Both the position numbers and the translations under genes were made by a program. Shown in pieces: positions 23,812 to 49,200 of a stretch of 64,000 nucleotides of DNA. The notes under the pieces are model-generated. The model was not told the DNA's origin and made no database searches. It saw only the letters and a list, made by a program, of their open reading frames with translations. The stretch is taken from contig NC_091473.1 of the NCBI RefSeq assembly GCF_036971445.1, forward strand, positions 130,944,001-131,008,000. The letters run 5' to 3'. Numbering within the stretch: the stretch's first letter is position 1; each line of letters opens with the position of its first letter. The stretch comes from Narcine bancroftii (Eukaryota).

Positions 23812-26800
23812 CAACCATGTGTATAGTTTGCCCATTTCCAGTTGGAGCAGACAACATCGGATTCTATGTGGTGCTACTATGTAGAAAGTGCCCTGAGTCA
23901 AGAGATGCCATGCTGATTTTCTGAATTGTTTTTCTATGTAGCAGCCTCTGGAGGAGGGAAATTATATGGAGCTCAAGATTCTGCTCATCCATACCTTTGG
24001 GCTCTCATGATGTGAGTGAGTGGCCAGTTTACTTCACTTGGATGGCTTGGGAGATAAGACCCCTTCTGTGCTCATGAATGAAATGCTGGCACTAGTGGAA
24101 GGGCATAGCCTGTTTGAACATTGGAGCAGCTGTCCAGAAGATAACTGCATGCTGCTGGTCAATGAGGATTTCAGTGATTCATAGAGAATCACAGCCCATG
24201 CTGATGTTCTATGGTGGGCAAGAAAGCATGATATCTGTAGGACAGGTCATCAGATCCCAATCACTGTGGCAGGACTGTGCAAGTCCAACATTAGACTACC
24301 AGTAGGCTCAATCAAATCCATTGTCAGACTTCCATTTGGCCAGGAGACAATGGGATGAAGATAGCACCTATAGCACATAGCTAATCTCCCCGTGCATTTC
24401 AGCGAAAATGCCGGAGCCAGCTGTCACCTAATTGCTGTAGTGGCTGACCATTGAGACACCTTTTTACAGACATTCCGACCAGTATTTCTTGGTGGATAAA
24501 GGGGCTTTCCCCCTTTGGGGCATGACACAAGTAACAGAAAACAGGGGCCATCATTGAACCAGTATGTGGCCTGCTGGTTGATCTAGAGGGACAAAAGCTT
24601 GTTCATACCAACACTTTCCAGACTTTCACCCTAGGTGAGGCCAAGCTGCCAGCCCCATATTTAGACACCATTACAATTTCAGAGAATGAATTTGCCATGT
24701 TGTTGCGATAATAATTGGGCCTCAATTCACCTCAGAGATGCTGAAACATAGGGTGTAGCACCATATACCAACCAAAAGGTCACCACTGCATGCCCGAGCT
24801 CATAGGCTCCCTCCAGATAAACTTTGACTGGCCAAAGAGGAGTTTGAAAGGATGGAGGACATGGGTATTGTACAATGGTCCAATAATTCCTGGGCCTCGC
24901 CACTCCTCATGGTACCCAATTCCGCAGGTGGATAAAGACCCTGCGGTTGAATGAGGTTACCACACTGGATCACTACCCAGTACCGCATTTACAGGACTTC
25001 GTGTCCAACCGGCAATGAGCCCGCGTTTATTCCAAGGTGGACCTGGTCTGGGGGTATCATCAAATCCTGATCTACCCAGATGGCATTCCAAAAACAGCTA
25101 TTATTGCACCCTTTGGCCTTATTGAATTAAGAAGAATACCTTTTGGGCTCAAAAATGCCGTGCAGATATTCAACATTTAATGGACAGAATGGGACACGAC
25201 TTTATCTTCTCATGCCTAGAAGACATACTTATCGCTAGCCACAGTTGTCAGGAACATCTGTCCCACCTGTGCAGGCTTTTCACTCATTTGCATGTGTTTG
25301 CGATGATGCGTCAATTTGGGTTAATGACCATCGATTTTCTGGGCCATAAAATCGACAAACACAGAGCAAAGCCACTACCGGCAAAGGTCGAGGCGATCTG
25401 GGCATTCACTAAGCCCAGCACAATTTAAGGCCTCCAGGAGTTCATTGGAATGGTGAACTTTTATCGCCTGTTTCTACGATCGGCAGCTCGCATCATGGTC
25501 AGCAGCATTTGAGATGCCAAGGAAACACTGGCTAATGCTGCATTGCTGGCCTGTCCAAGAACAGATGTCCCAACAGCCCTGACAGTGGATGCAGTAGGAG
25601 GGGGTGCTTGAACAATACATCAATGGTCATTGGAAAACATTGGCTTTCTTTAGCAAGCACCTAAGACCACCAGAACTCCAGTTCTGTCCTTTTGATCAAG
25701 AATTGTTGGCACTGTACCTAGCTATCAGACATTTCAGGTACTTACTAGAAAACAGGCATTTCACAGCTCTTAAAGACCACAAGCCACTTACATTTGCCTT
25801 CACTAAGGTATCAGATCTATGGTCGGCTCAGCGACAGAGACTTTTATCATATATTTATGAATTAATGAGAGCCATCAAACACATCTCAGGAAAGACCAGC
25901 GTAGTAGCACATGCATTGTTTTGCCTGGTCATACAATCTGTGCAGACTTTAGTCTAAGGGGTGGACTACGTTGCACTTGTGAAAGCGCAACTGGGAGATA
26001 AAGAAATTCCACGTTACAGAACAGGAGACTCGAACCTGCAGCTGGAAGAAATTACGGTAGGCCTGGGGGAGCTCAACCTCCTGTTTAACGTAACGTCCTT
26101 ACCCAATCGTTCTGGTGACCTGGAGGCGGCAGGTATTTGACATGGTATATGGGTTGGCACATCCATCGATCAGAATGACTGTCCGGATGGTAGCCAACAG
26201 ATTTGTGTGGCATGGCCTTCGAAAATATGTCAGCAATTGGGTGAAGACATGCACTCGTGGCCAGACATCCAAAATCCAGCCACACATGAAAGCCCCCACT
26301 ACAATCTTTTGAGCCGAAGTATCAGAGGTTTGATCACATGTGGACATTGTAGGCCCCCTGCCAACGTCACGTGGTTCCCGTTTTCTTCTCACAATAGTGA
26401 ATAGGGCCACGTGGTGGCCAGCTGCTGTTCTACTGGGCAGACACGACTACCAACACCTGTGTTAGGGCCCACATTTCCGCCTGGCCTGCCATGATTTGGT
26501 TTCCAATTGACATCAAGCCTGTGGGCAGCAATGCCATCCTGCTTTGAACCAAGTTGCACCACACAACTGTGCATCACCCACAACCCAACAGACTAGTAGA
26601 AAGTTTCCGCAGGCATTTGAAATCAGCCCTTATGGTGGATCTGCAGGAACCTAACTGGCTTGATGAATTGCTGTGGGTACACTTGGGCATATGAACAACA
26701 CCTAAGGATGATATAGGTGCCTCATCATTAGAGATGGTCTATGCCACGCCCCTGATGGTTCCAGGAGAACTTGTATCACACTCACGAGGACAGTAAGAGA

Positions 26801-35043: not shown

Positions 35044-38000
35044 TTAGAAACAGACTTGTCTGGCTTTTTTATTTGCAAAATCTTTCAAAATAATTTTAAA
35101 GTCAAGGTTTTAGTAATGTCATTTTCTATAGATAGCATCGCCAAATTGATTAGTCTCTCTTGCGAAATTGTTGATCGTAAGTATGTTTTAATCAGTTTTA
35201 GTTTTGAAAAACTTACTTCACCCGATGTGACTGTTACAGGCATCATTAAGTAAATCCTCAAAACAATAAAAACATTAGGAAATGCTGTGAATCGATTGTT
35301 TATGTCCAGGTATTCAAACAGAGCTTGAGGCTTAATGACACTGAAGGGAAGAAAAGTTTTCAGAGCTTTAAGTTCTTCGCCCAACAGATAACCATCCACG
35401 TCTTTAGTTGTTTCAATAACTATCCCTCCATCAGTGTTCTGTTTTAGTCTGGTGTCAGTTAAAGCTGCTTCAAGGTCTGCTGCGTGTTTCCTTATTTCTG
35501 TCTTTTGTAAGCTCTGAAATTTATTTAAAAATTCAAATAATTTTACATGGCTTTTAAGCTGCTTAAATCTAAACTCTAAAGATTGAATAGCTTTGTCTCA
35601 CACTAAACTAAACCACTGAACTCTGTGCTTCTTTTAGATCATCTAAAGCTGATCTTTTGCCTCACATGAAAACATTCCCTTCCTTCTACGTAGTTTTTTT
35701 TCTTGAAAATTGTCTAAACTCCAATGGTAATTCAACAGCTTCAGCCAATTCATTTGCACCTATTAGGACATCATTAAAACTGCCCTCTCTATAAATTCTT
35801 AGCTATGATAATAGTTTTTCACATGACTCCATGCCTTCATCAACGTCCTTTGTTTCACCTTGTAGTTCCTTGCTTACATAGTTAACTTTAAAAAGTACTT
35901 CATGCCAAAATATCAAAGAAACTAAACATTTGTAGTCTTTTAGCTGGTTTGCTAAAGATTCAGCTTCTGCTTTTACCTTGGGCTCATCTGTTATCTCTGA
36001 TATTTCCACAAGTACTTCTCCAACCTGATAATGAATAGCTTTAACACTATCAATCTGACACTCCCACCTTGCGTTGCTCTAGGGCACACATTTCAAACTC
36101 AGGCCCGCGGGCCAAATTTGGCCCATGATATAATTATATTTGGCCCGCAAGATCATATCAAATATGTATTAGAGCTGGCCCGCTGGCCGCCGCTCCAGTA
36201 TAGCGCATGCACAGCTAATACTACAAATCCCAGAATGCTTTACAATTGTGTTGGCGTCAGCCCGCTAATCGCCCCCACCTCCTCTCTTTACTTTCATTAG
36301 TATCTGTGACCTGTCACCTGACTCACATGTAATAAACCCCTTACGGAAAATGGCCAAACGAAAGACAGAAAACAGGACATTTCAAGACAGGTGGGAGGCC
36401 GACTATATGTTCATCATTTTAAAAGACAAACCTGTTTGTCATTGAAGCAAGTTGTTATTTTTTTGACTTGTTGGCTTGTGAAAAAAAATACATTTAAAAG
36501 GAGCTTAAAGGCTATAGAGAAATATTATTTACTGAATATTTTATTTCTCATTTGTTAATGCTTCTTCTAGAAAGAGTTTAACCAAACCTATTATTAAACA
36601 TTTATTTTAATAAGAAAAAGTTTAACATTACATATGTTGAAAGAAGAGAAAAGATGCAGATGTTGTTGAAAATTTTCAATAAATATTTAGTTTGGCCCAT
36701 GACTTAGTCCAAGTTTTTAATTTTGTCCCTCTGTGAATTTGAGTTTGACACCCCTGCTCTTGGGTTTCACTGATAACCCGGGCAAATGTTTGTTAAAAAC
36801 TGCCCATCTCTTAGTTGATGCAGAGAACAATATGTAGATCCTTTGCAAGATCCCAAAAAACGTTATAGCATCTGGACAACACTTGGCTACATCTCTGAGT
36901 AAAAGGTTATAATTGTGACATGCACAGGGTACAAAGAAAGCTCTTGAATTAACCTTCAACAGTCGTGCTTGTACTCCGGATGTGTGACCTTCCATGTTGC
37001 TACCCTTGTCATAGCCTTGCCCTCTAATCTCCTTTACCTCTAAATTTAATTCCTTCAGTGTGTTTAGTAATGTTTTATATAAATCTTCTCCTGTGCTACT
37101 TTCAACCTGCATAAACTTTATGAAATGTTCATAAACACCTGAAGGAGCCAAGTTACTGTCAGACACATACCTGATCCTTAGAGACATTTTCTCTTGGTGA
37201 CTCGTATCAGGTGTGCAGTCTAAAATTATGGCGTAGTACTTAGCTGCTTTTACGTGTTTCAGTATCTCATTCAAAACAGCTGTAGCCATAATGTCTAGTC
37301 GTTTATTCAGAGTATCTTTTCCTAAATAGTGATTATGAATTGTGTGGGTTTTGACTTTTCGCAAATGTTCTTCAAGAACAGGCTCAGACTTTCCAAACAG
37401 CTCAACAAGACCTAAAAAGTTTCCATTGTGTACACTCTCATTACCAATTTTGTCCTTTGTTCCCCTAAATGCTAGATTTCTCTCAGCAAGAAACTGCGCT
37501 ATTGCTACTAGCCTTTTGAATACTTGTTGCCAGTGTTTTGCATCTTCATTGATGATTATTTCAAGTTCTTTGTCAATTGTCTGTCCACTGCAAATTCTTT
37601 GGTGTAACTCCCAGAAACTCCACCTAGCTTCCAAATGGTTTTTAGAATTTTCATTCTCACACAACCTTGTATGAAGATTAGACCATTTGTTGAATTCACT
37701 TGTTGATTGTGCACTGGTTGTTTACAATAAAAGCAATAAATTCTATCAGCAGACTGAGAGTTTATAATCCAAGGTCCTTCAACACACTCCTCATTTGAAA
37801 GTTTCCTCTTACAGTGAAACTTGGAAAAACACAATCCCTTTTCATTTTGTGGAAAGTTGTTCACTGGAATAGGAGGACCTTTGTTAAATAATCTCTTACA
37901 TTTTGATTTATGTATGCTGGCCAGTTGGCTCGGTCATCATAAATGTTAATTACAACTGTACTCATGGATGATCTATCATTGCGTGATGTTTGGGCTTGGT

Positions 38001-44050: not shown

Positions 44051-45096
44051 AGCTGCTGTCAGGTGGCCAGAAAGCCCGACTGTAAAGCAGCACAGAAGTA
44101 TTCTGTGCGGCTGTTGGGTGGCCATCTGAAACCGGAAAAGCCGGCCAGGAGGGTTACTTACCTAACTAACTCTTCTCCGAGAGGTATAACTATCCTACTT
44201 GGAGTATCAATTGTGGCAGCTGAAAGCAGCCCGGGCTGCCAGGGGGCGGGCTGATGACGTTGTGGTGACGTCGTCACCCATTGACTCCTGAGACAAGGAA
44301 GCCAGACTAAAGTAAACTTCTTCAAATTTTATTTCACACCCTGTCCCACTGCCGGCCTCCACCCCACCCCACCCTCTCCCACCCAAATCCCGTTGCCACT
44401 TCCGGTCTCCCCCCTCGCTCATCCGACTCCTGCTGCCGATCTCCCTCCCCCCCTCTCCCGCCTGACTCCCGCTGCTGCTGCCATTCTCCACCCCCACCCT
44501 CACCTGCCCGACTCCCACTGCCACTTCTGGGGTGGGGGGGAGGAAGACTGGCAAGGGGAGTCGAGCGGGTAAGGGTGGGGGGGAAACCGGCAGCGGCAGC
44601 GGGAGTTGGATGGGCGAGGGGAGGGGAACCGATAGTGGCAATGGGAGTCAGGCAGGCAAGGGTGGGGGGGATCTGGCAGTGGCAGCGGAAGTCAGGCTGG
44701 CAAGGGTGGGGGAAATCAGGCAGCGGCAGCGGGAGTCAGGCAGGCGAGGGTGGGGGGGAACCAGCAGCGGGAGTCGGGGGTGAGGGTGGGGTGGGGGGAA
44801 ACTGGCAGCGAGAGTCAGGCGGGTGAGGGCGGGGGGAAGACCAGCAGCGGGAGTCAAGTCATGCCTGAGTTGTTTGTTAGGCATGCCTTGACGAGCAGCT
44901 ATGACGTGGAGTCAACGTGGGTGGGACTAGGCTCCTGTCCGGAGTAGCCGCTTCCGCTACTAGACGGCTAGCAGTCAGCTGGTACATTTAAGTGCCTGAA
45001 AGCCGTCCATTCCATGGCCACCTAAATGTGTTAGCTGAACTCCTCTAGTCGCGCCTGCAGGTGCCTAATCTTCTATCAGAGTACCTGAAAGCGGCT
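44051..45096. mobile_element. GC-rich non-autonomous TIR element (Harbinger-like) with an internal minisatellite
   Basis: ends AGCTGCTGTCAGGT / ACCTGAAAGCGGCT (12/14 inverted match); identical 3-bp flanks AGA. Confidence 0.6.
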
Positions 45097-45978: not shown

Positions 45979-46297
45979 ACTGTGACTTTACTAGATACTG
46001 CATGACCTGTTGGTGTGTTGCACTACAATCCCAGCATCTGCTGTACTGTAATGTTGATTTGCTGACAGCTGTCAGCATTTTAAATTGTTCATCTCAAAGG
46101 TTCATTATTTTGTTTGTCAATATTGCACTTATTTATGGTGATCAGCTGCTTTATTCTTGAAACAGAAATAAAGGCTACTTAAACTAAAGAGATATTTAGT
46201 GGTCGTTATCATCACAGCTCGCAGGAACAAGCGCAAAGGGAACTCACAATCACTTTTTTAAATTTAAATATTTTAAAATTTAGACAGAGAGCATGAC

Positions 46298-49200
46298 TGT
46301 AGTGATTTGATTGTATGTGCTGGCTGGCCCTCCCTCTGGGTGTCCTTCTATCTTGGCTCTTCCCTTAATCCTACCCATGTGACCCTGGGCCATAAAGGTC
46401 GAGTCCCCTCTCCTTCGTGCTCATTCCTAGCCTTGGACCCGGGCCAGAATCTCTAGTACAATAAAGCCTATCGTTCCCCTCAGTCTTTGTCTGAGTCATT
46501 ATTGGTGTTACCGATAGCACCCAACAATTTATGGTACTCGAGACTGCTGGCCCGGGTCCAAGGATAGGAATTGACCCACAAGTCCCAGGTGCTTCGGTGC
46601 TCTTCAAACAGTGGATGAACTGCTTCAATAACTTCCTCGACGCTGCTGCCAAGGTGGTCGACTCTGACGAGAAGAAGTTAAAAATCCTTCAGGCACGAGT
46701 CAGCCAGAGGGCCTTCCTGACCATCCAAGGCAGTGCGACCTACAACGAGGCGATGGCTTAGCTACGGGTGCTGTACAAGCCTAAAGTAAACGTGGTATAC
46801 TCCTGTTACCTGCTGGCGTCCATAAAACAACAGGAAAAGACTGTTTGGGGGAACCCACGGCCACTATATACCTAATCCAGTGCATGGAAGAACTGATTCG
46901 AGATGCCTGTGTGTCGGGTCTGAGGTCTGAGGTCAGATTACATCTGGCAACGACTCCTTGAGGAGGACCCGCTCCAACACAAAAAGGCTATCAACTTAAT
47001 CAGAACCTTAGACTTGGCCCAGAGCCACACAGTGTCGATCGTGGGCAGAAGTGGGCCATCTCCATATGTTTCACCATGAGGGCCTTCGGCCTGGGACTCT
47101 GCATCAGGCACTACCAACCCGATCACGGCTGCAATCACGCCGACGGCATCATCGAGATGCAACTTCTGTGGGCAGTCCAAGCATTTGCAACGCCTCTGCC
47201 CCGTGAGGGGGGGAGGCTATGTGTTCGGGAAGAGGGGTCATTACCAGAAAGTCTGCTGGTCCCGACCACAGTCTGGGAGCAGCACGGTGTGCGTTCCTGA
47301 GGAGCTTCCAGCGCTGACCGCGTGTGCTCTAAGGTGAGCGCCATCTTGTCGGCCATCACTACCAACCTCAGCACATTGGCCCACCGCCCCGATGACATCA
47401 CTTCCGACTGCCGAGACTCCATTTCTGCCTTCTTCTTCATCGAACACTGTGTGGTCAACATGGAGGTCACCATCTTGGGAAGGCCTCCCCACCAACGACG
47501 ACGATGAAGGGATGCCTATCCTGGCGTCGGTGACTTTGAATCAAGCCAACCCTCACATGATCCCAAACTCCATGATGCTGATTGAGGTGAATAGGCATAA
47601 AATGAACTATCTTTGAGATAGTGGCAGCACAGAAAGCTTTGTGCACCCCGATGTGGTCCAGAGACTCTCCCTCCCAATCCAACCCATGACCAGGACGGTT
47701 TAAATGGCTGCGGGACCAACAGATCAGTATCCGGGGGTATTGTGTAGTGTCGCTGACGGTGGGGGAGGAGTGTTATAATGATTTTGTATTGTTAATTATC
47801 CCTCCCCTCTGCGCGCCAATCCTCCTGGGCCTTGACTTTCAGAGTCAGTTCAGGAATGTGACGATGGCATTTGGGAGCCCCCAACCACCGCTGACCGTCC
47901 ACATCCACCAGTCCCTGGCACCGCCTCGTGGTCCCAGCACGCAGCCACTGGCACCATCCTGCGGGCTCAGTACCCAGTCTCCAGCAGCGTCCTGCAACCT
48001 CACCACACTGCGGGTGGCCCCCCCACCATCACTGTTCACGAACCTCACCTGGGATTGTAAACCACTCGCCACCAAGAGTAGACGATATAGCTCGGAGGAC
48101 ATGCAATTCATCCAGGCTGAGGTTCAATGACTCCTGGTGGAGGGGATCATAGACCCTAGCACCAGTCCCTGGAGAGCGCAGGTCCTCGTAGTCAGAGGTG
48201 CGGGCAAGCCCCGGATGGTAATTGATTATAGTCAGACCATCAACCGCTTCACCCGGTTGGACGCTTCCCCACTTCCCCGTGTAGCCAACTTGGTCAATAA
48301 GGTTGCTAAGTACAGAATTTTTTCGACCATTGACCTCAAGTCAGCTTACCATCAACTCCCCCTCTGCCCAGCCGATCGAATATATATACAGGCTTTGAGG
48401 CGGACAGGAAGCTCTTTCACTTCCTGTGGGTGCCTTTCAGGGTTATTAATGGTGTTTCTGTCTTTCAGAGAGTGATGGACTGGATGGTAGAGGAACACGG
48501 GCTGACGGCGATGTTCCCCTACCTCGACAATGCCATCATCTGCAGCCATGACCAGCAGGACCACGACACGAACCTCGCAAAATTCTTGCGTACGGCCAAT
48601 TCCCTTAACTTGACGTACAACAAGGACAAATGCGTGTTCAACACAGAGCACCTGGCCCTTCTTGGATGCCTCGTGGCACATGGTGTCATTGCCCCCTGAC
48701 CCAGACCGCATGGGACACCTCATGGAGCTTCCTGTCCCAAACTCCCTGAAAGCGCTTAAGAGATACCTGGGGCTGTTTTCATATTATGCTCAATGGGAGC
48801 CCAGCTACGCTGATAAGGCTCACCCCCTAATTCACACAGCCACCTTCCCATTATCGGCGGAGGCCCAGGCTTCTTTTGAACAAATTAGAGGAGATATCAC
48901 TAAGGCCACGATGCATGTCGTGGATGAATCTGTCCCTTTTCAGGTAGAGAGAGATGCCTCCAATATCACATTGGCCACCACGTTAAATCAGGCAGACAGG
49001 CCGGTAGCATTTTTGTCCCACACCCTGCACAGTCCTGAACTCCGGCACTCCCCTCTATCGAGAAGGAGGCTCAAGCTATCGTTGAGGTAGTGCGCCACCG
49101 GCGGCATTACCTAGCCGGTAAGAGATTTACCCTGTTGACTGATGGAGGGCAGTGGCCTTCATGTTCAGTGCCAAACAACGGGGTAAAATCAAGAATGACA

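Follow-up and report, generated by a model that had tools for sequence, protein, structure and literature searches.

Self-priming in described retrotransposons

In Tf1, the RNA's first 11 bases pair with the primer-binding site (PBS), followed by a cut of RNase H after base 11 that yields the primer (PMC7175516), and the Tf1 cDNA often bears a DNA copy of the PBS (PMC11042837). A three-duplex 'pretzel' structure is described for the Tf1/sushi group (PMC10085805). Among these elements, the demonstration of self-priming concerns fission-yeast Tf1. Self-priming has been described for Tf1/sushi elements of fungi and vertebrates and predicted for the plant elements Tcn1 and TAR (PMC6317226, PMC4600332). 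As far as the accessible text of the first of these sources goes, the prediction for the plant lineages Tcn1 (Gypsy) and TAR, Houba and Osr-1 (copia) was drawn from complementarity between the LTR and the PBS, as is done here. The bivalve TRIM and the Dictyostelium Skipper contain no PBS, and the available portions of the sources describe no LTR-complementary arm for them (PMC6934838, PMC5006619). In HIV-1, the 5′ LTR poly(A) signal is held in the paired stem of the poly(A) hairpin (PMC12789967).

The element analysed here lies at positions 46298-50710 of the window, which is the whole 64,000-nucleotide stretch of Narcine bancroftii DNA under study. Its PBS position after the 5′ LTR was found to be complementary to a stretch of the LTR, as in Tf1, Tf2, Tj1 and the Tf1/sushi group, with which it also shares the Ty3/gypsy domain order. 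Tf1/sushi elements contain a chromodomain at the integrase C-terminus, whereas the lack of one noted in the preliminary description was borne out by the absence of a Pfam Chromo match in the C-terminal ORF of the element and in all of its full-length relatives (0/39 with a match). The third duplex of the pretzel was found in 0/21 families of the clade and the U5-end hairpin in only 2/21 at z<-1.65, both by simple energy tests only. Because the chromodomain and pretzel tests fail, the element is not filed in the Tf1/sushi group. The duplex is 11 nt long in Tf1, whereas it is 13-19 nt in most clade relatives and 44 nt in the element. Unlike in Tf1/sushi, the arm of the clade is anchored on the poly(A) hexamer with one spacer base, and the RT motif of the relatives is mostly YLDN, or YLDD; unlike in Tf1, the arm of the element overlaps gag codons. 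Tcn1 is a plant chromovirus and TAR a plant copia element, whereas the clade of the element is metazoan non-chromovirus Gypsy.

Structure of the element

Positions 46298-50710 were found to contain one Ty3/gypsy LTR retrotransposon on the plus strand with the domain order gag-PR-RT-RH-IN. The 5′ LTR (46298-46526) and the 3′ LTR (50481-50710) both start with TG and end with CA and are 90% identical. The left target-site duplication of 5 bp (46293-46297) agrees with the right one (50711-50715) at 4/5 positions, and a polypurine tract was found at 50466-50480, so that the LTRs, target-site duplication, polypurine tract and domain order of Metaviridae are all present. Pfam matched pieces of RT, RNase H and the integrase core, in that order, and Ty3 Gag-Pol was the best solved relative of the clade profile in a profile comparison. 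The coding region (46531 to approximately 50150) contains many stops and frameshifts, and this copy is therefore dead.

The ATG at 46531 is the first one after 46423 and is in frame with Gag homology from residue 11, while the first ten Gag residues differ from the usual N-terminal motif of the clade. A search with the 76-aa Gag N-terminus among 307 candidates gave no match at E<=1e-6, and by this sequence comparison no relative with the same Gag N-terminus was seen among them. Rfam gave no match at E<=1 on 46200-46800.

Other features were found in the neighbourhood. A GC-rich array at 44340-44855, 1.4 kb upstream of the element, was found to contain units of ~44 nt, with the first half inverted relative to the second half and arms of up to 51 nt that are 84% complementary. 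Pieces of a hAT transposase (DUF4371, hAT dimerisation domain) were found on the minus strand at 35088-37721 of the window.

Fold-back in this copy

The bases after the 5′ LTR had been described as the reverse complement of an LTR stretch, and the alignment upheld this: the downstream arm (46528-46571, plus strand) agreed with the LTR arm (46423-46465) in 39/44 columns, with 4 mismatches and 1 gap, and with the corresponding stretch of the 3′ LTR (50606-50649) in 37/44 columns. Only at 46533, 46539 and 46564 does the downstream arm match neither LTR, in keeping with the count of about 3/44 given before. The two LTRs differ from each other at six positions within the arm, and in every case the downstream arm was found to pair with one of them, which is the outcome to be expected if a near-perfect duplex has drifted. 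The arm reached a local alignment score of 65, whereas 2000 dinucleotide shuffles gave 41 at most, and the fold of 46420-46575 gave -73.1 kcal/mol (z -8.5), equalled by 0/200 shuffles. The second copy of the LTR arm, in the 3′ LTR, is followed by host DNA without a partner (flank score 5).

A single unpaired base (46527) separates the LTR edge from the paired region, as had been claimed, and the motifs named in the preliminary description were all found in place. The TATA-like CATAAA of predicted function (46391-46396) is followed, 32 nt on, by the outer edge of the arm, which falls on the initiator-like CTCATTC (46420-46426), an exact TCAKTY match with a predicted +1 at 46423; this placement fits a transcription start at the outer edge. 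The LTR arm, which is the predicted self-primer by alignment, fold and cross-family comparison, ends in AATAAA (46460-46465), followed by the presence of a predicted small U5 stem-loop beside the LTR end (46504-46521; MFE fold, z -3.5 against shuffles). The start codon of gag (ATG at 46531) and its first 13 codons lie within the downstream arm. At one of the three mismatches the G of this ATG stands opposite the first A of AATAAA, a place where the two signals cannot be kept intact and be paired as well.

Relatives of the element

The RH-IN stretch of the element was found to be 64-70% identical to shark and ray proteins and about 45-57% identical to proteins of corals, molluscs, flukes, nematodes, insects, crustaceans and tunicates. 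The 39 full-length relatives that were aligned are about 1,200 aa long and contain one ORF and two zinc knuckles. Judged by these sequences, the element is a member of a Gypsy clade that is widespread among metazoans, lacks a chromodomain and has a single ORF. The RT catalytic motif was Y-x-D-N and not Y-x-D-D in 60/84 motif matches among 120 proteins, the element included.

The clade profile retrieved 79 metagenome loci, drawn from the top 80 among 584 confirmed, and another 12 loci that lie on MAG contigs; an IMG/VR search gave no relative. The 91 loci contained a gag start in 46 cases and at least 90 bases upstream of it in 42, and these 42, together with the element of the window, formed 24 families, of which 21 were scored. 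One family left out of the scoring, L030, shows by eye a 12-nt arm when its two contig ends are read together. No arm is seen in L022 or L053, and neither has a recognisable LTR upstream in its contig. L070 was dropped for its short upstream part, with the junction and arm visible by eye at its other end. The arm comparison covers DNA of metagenome and MAG loci, and the shark and ray relatives were compared as proteins only. Twelve contigs in bacterial MAGs (L080-L091) were found to carry these animal retrotransposons, some whole with both LTRs; the MAGs are probably contaminated with host DNA.

Quick trees of RT and of RH-IN grouped the element with the shark and ray proteins, and this group fell inside or sister to the scored families, far from the Gypsy elements of the flanks; the outgroup consisted of unnamed out-of-clade elements, with no named Tf1, sushi, Cigr-1 or Mag references in the trees. 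With a single ORF of about 1,210 codons and with short LTRs, Cigr-1 resembles the clade relatives. Cigr-1 of Ciona intestinalis is listed under Mag (PMC6238403, supplementary file 1), and Cigr-1/Mag as the name of the clade is a tentative lead only (PMC6238403, PMC3670739). The accessible text on Cigr-1 mentions no mechanism of priming, and the string YLDN did not occur in the portions of the supplements searched for Cigr-1/Mag. Saci2 and lennie were set aside as candidates, being described with tRNA PBSs in the available text (PMC12471100, PMC4558846).

Conservation of the arm in the clade

The fold-back had been presented as a peculiarity of one element, and this did not hold. The screen of relatives that had been proposed found a PBS-position arm in all 20 other families scored, and only the 44-nt length is special to the element. 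The arm was found to start at +2, after one spacer base, in 11/11 families (the element included) with an LTR end fixed independently by the direct repeat; the LTR ends of the other 10/21 were set from CA and the arm and do not test the register. The arm was 13-19 nt long in 18 families, 9 nt in one, 28 nt in one and 44 nt in the element (n=21), the last being the longest and about three times that of most relatives.

Each family carries its own arm sequence. The score with the own partner had a mean of 14.1, against 6.1 for 420 cross-family pairs (maximum 12), and the own partner was the best in 20/21 families by score and in 20/21 by duplex energy; the 9-nt arm of L039 is not its own best partner. 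The host flank after the 3′ LTR had scores of 4-11. Arm positions 1-13 were found to be Watson-Crick paired in 265/273 cells, with 0 G-U and 8 mismatched, against 65-99/273 paired cells in slid registers; since choosing the arms by best score raises the paired fraction, it is the cross-family and slid controls that count. Positions 4-15 contained two to four pair types each and beat shuffles among families (p<=0.0015), and the pairing fell to chance level from position 17 and was absent at the spacer. Compensating changes, which the preliminary description had named as a check, were found across families and, on both sides of the duplex, between the close relatives L011 and L015 and between L004 and L007/L009. 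An unpaired change at the outer end of the duplex was common to three of the five copies shown of the L005 family.

The LTR arm ended in AATAAA or ATTAAA in 15/21 families and in an A-rich variant in the remainder, followed directly by GCC or ACC in 16/21. A small hairpin after the LTR arm was found in 9/21 families and was not found in the element. The initiator enrichment at the arm starts of the relatives was mixed: for initiator motifs including TCAKTY, 2/6 motif tests gave p<0.01 and the other four p 0.07-0.48, with the exact TCAKTY at the arm start in 2/21 families and one-mismatch tests giving 8/21 and 15/21 where 3.2 and 8.3 would be expected.

Other copies in sequencing runs

Contigs from four public runs, which carry two organism codes, provided the evidence on other copies; three of the runs are DNA and one is possibly RNA. 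The LTR and arm were covered by hundreds of contigs across the four. Among the 40 variant rows covered, of a table that has 210 more, position 46539 in run X1 (7 contigs) was found to carry, in ~97% of the depth, a base complementary to 46454. In 17-18 contigs the bulge is filled by a one-base insertion at 46447/46449, which the 3′ LTR also has. The other copies pair better than this one, with the caveat that the LTR contigs may lie in reverse on the downstream arm.

These data bear on the reading that the fold-back arose by accident in this copy alone, through a local inversion or a template switch. An arm about three times longer than in most relatives would suit such an accident, as would the nature of the other-copy evidence, which consists of run contigs and not of full-length sister copies. 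However, the register and the hexamer anchor are the same as in 20 other families, the frame from the ATG enters the gag homology without a shift, and the better pairing of the other copies, which cover the arm in four runs, argues against a one-off inversion, subject to the same caveat on contigs possibly reversed on the arm. The accident is thereby largely refuted and is hardly credible.

Two further contigs are recorded here as observations. One contig of run X4 (depth 6.5) joins 46473 and 46526 on opposite strands, 8 nt from the junction expected of an unremoved self-primer; it is absent from run X1 of the same sample and, as a single contig, was given no weight. A deep contig of run X6 (record 25, depth 173) over 46463-46751 belongs to a diverged subfamily with many small deletions over the LTR end and the arm, which is possibly non-autonomous or a different family.

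Probable absence of a tRNA primer site

The claim that no recognisable tRNA-complementary PBS follows the 5′ LTR stood in part. The element itself contains a TGG at +6 after the LTR (46532-46534), whereas TGG within 12 nt of the LTR was found in 0/20 of the other families. The absence of a tRNA PBS is thus not settled by the sequence of this copy alone. A control Gypsy element in the window (22306 to about 27493) was found to contain TGG at +2 and no arm (score 7 or less). It is unrelated and more decayed, with LTRs about 75% alike and an RT piece at 24947-25177. No LTR pair was found in six out-of-clade elements of the locus flanks, which are therefore unusable as PBS controls.

The lineage might then be primed by a tRNA at the TGG of +6, with the fold-back as an inherited relic or serving another purpose. 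The TGG at 46532 is the only one among the 21 families, and the end of the initiator Met tRNA would presumably match part of the bases after it, with two central mismatches. PBS offsets of four bases are described in the accessible text on tapeworm ta-TRIM/lennie (PMC4558846). Against this, the TGG is made by the TG of the gag ATG and the next base, an offset of five bases is unusual, the TGG bases lie inside a 44-bp stem that would block the binding of a tRNA, and no relative has the TGG. ARAGORN found no tRNA gene in the window or in the 47 loci scanned. Priming by a tRNA in this lineage is considered highly improbable.

Poly(A) signal and gag AUG

The poly(A) link of the arm gains comparative support from the sequences of the 15/21 arms that end in AATAAA or ATTAAA, and the fold-back might exist to hide the poly(A) signal of the 5′ LTR, with reverse transcription primed in another way. 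Five of the six hexamer bases were predicted to be paired at 0.69-0.94 in the 5′ LTR against 0.17-0.27 in the 3′ LTR. Suppression of the 5′ poly(A) signal by a stem-loop has been proposed for HIV-1 in the available text (PMC12789967). Unlike in the tRNA-primed HIV-1, the partner in the element lies outside the LTR, at the PBS position, and for this reason the stem can form only at the 5′ LTR. Hiding of the signal leaves unexplained, however, the invariant +2 register, the sharp length of 13-15 bp, the 0/273 G-U pairs and the lack of TGG in 20/20 relatives, and 6/21 arms end in non-canonical hexamers. As the sole purpose of the fold-back it is unlikely; as a second use of a duplex that primes, masking of the 5′ poly(A) signal is plausible on the modelled pairing.

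The hairpin could also be a translation or packaging switch that hides the gag AUG, with priming a separate matter. The AUG at 46531 is the first of the predicted RNA; its A and U were predicted to be paired (0.94, 0.73), and a stem of -72 kcal/mol, which begins at the predicted cap, has this AUG at its inner end. However, the arm was found to lie over the whole AUG only in the element and in L034 among the 21 families, and in most relatives it just reaches the AUG or stops short of it, by as much as about 30 nt. Cover of the AUG is therefore not a clade trait and not the conserved feature, and a switch of this kind as the reason for the hairpin is very unlikely. Gating of the AUG in the element is a possible side effect under the folding model.

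Proposed mechanism of priming

The preferred reading, given a probability of about 0.7 from the sequence comparison, is that 46528-46571 is a Tf1-like self-priming site that replaces the tRNA primer. This reading, put forward in the preliminary description, was well supported, indirectly, by the fold-back at the PBS position, the family-specific compensation and the lack of TGG in the relatives. The fold-back is a real structural signal of the whole clade, most likely marking tRNA-free priming.

Under self-priming, transcription would start at 46423 and the 5′ end of the RNA would fold onto the arm at 46528-46571, followed by a cut of the element's RNase H just after AAUAAA, near 46465/46466. 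The cut RNA end would then prime minus-strand DNA synthesis in place of a tRNA. The strong-stop DNA would span 46466-46527, and the first strand transfer would rely on the few bases that separate the hexamer from the poly(A) site. Plus-strand synthesis would copy the whole primer, so that the downstream arm would be rewritten from the LTR in each cycle; such copying would account for Watson-Crick pairing that is strict and free of G-U, for the sharp outer edge and for an arm as long as the distance from start to cut. The 44 nt of the element probably reflect this distance: a start site further upstream would make its arm longer than the 13-19 nt found in most relatives, and the long arm would have overrun the leader and the first gag codons.

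A wider model is more doubtful and is offered as a tentative one. According to it, a pan-metazoan chromodomain-less Gypsy clade would have a self-priming of its own, independent of Tf1/sushi; its primer would always end at the poly(A) signal, a single duplex would serve both for priming and for silencing the 5′ poly(A) site, and the transcription start would dictate the PBS. In the cartilaginous-fish branch, an upstream start would have stretched the primer to about 43 nt and rewritten the Gag N-terminus, which would now be encoded by the complement of the promoter-proximal LTR.

Meaning for the clade

No report of self-priming in the clade of the element was found in the accessible parts of the open literature, and Repbase, GyDB, Butler 2001, Lin and Levin 1997 and Simmen and Bird 2000 may already note it. 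So far, self-priming has been seen as characteristic of the Tf1/sushi chromoviruses and of some few plant lineages. If the reading is true, a large chromodomain-less animal clade would be self-priming, which would mean either an independent origin or a far wider ancestry of tRNA-free priming. An arm at +2 that ends at the poly(A) hexamer would provide an annotation rule for 'PBS-less' elements, and the families would offer duplexes of naturally graded length, 9 nt at the least and 44 nt at the most, for testing the recognition and cutting of an RNA-RNA duplex by RT. The overlap of the arm with the gag codons would clearly illustrate how a replication signal can shape the N-terminus of a protein.
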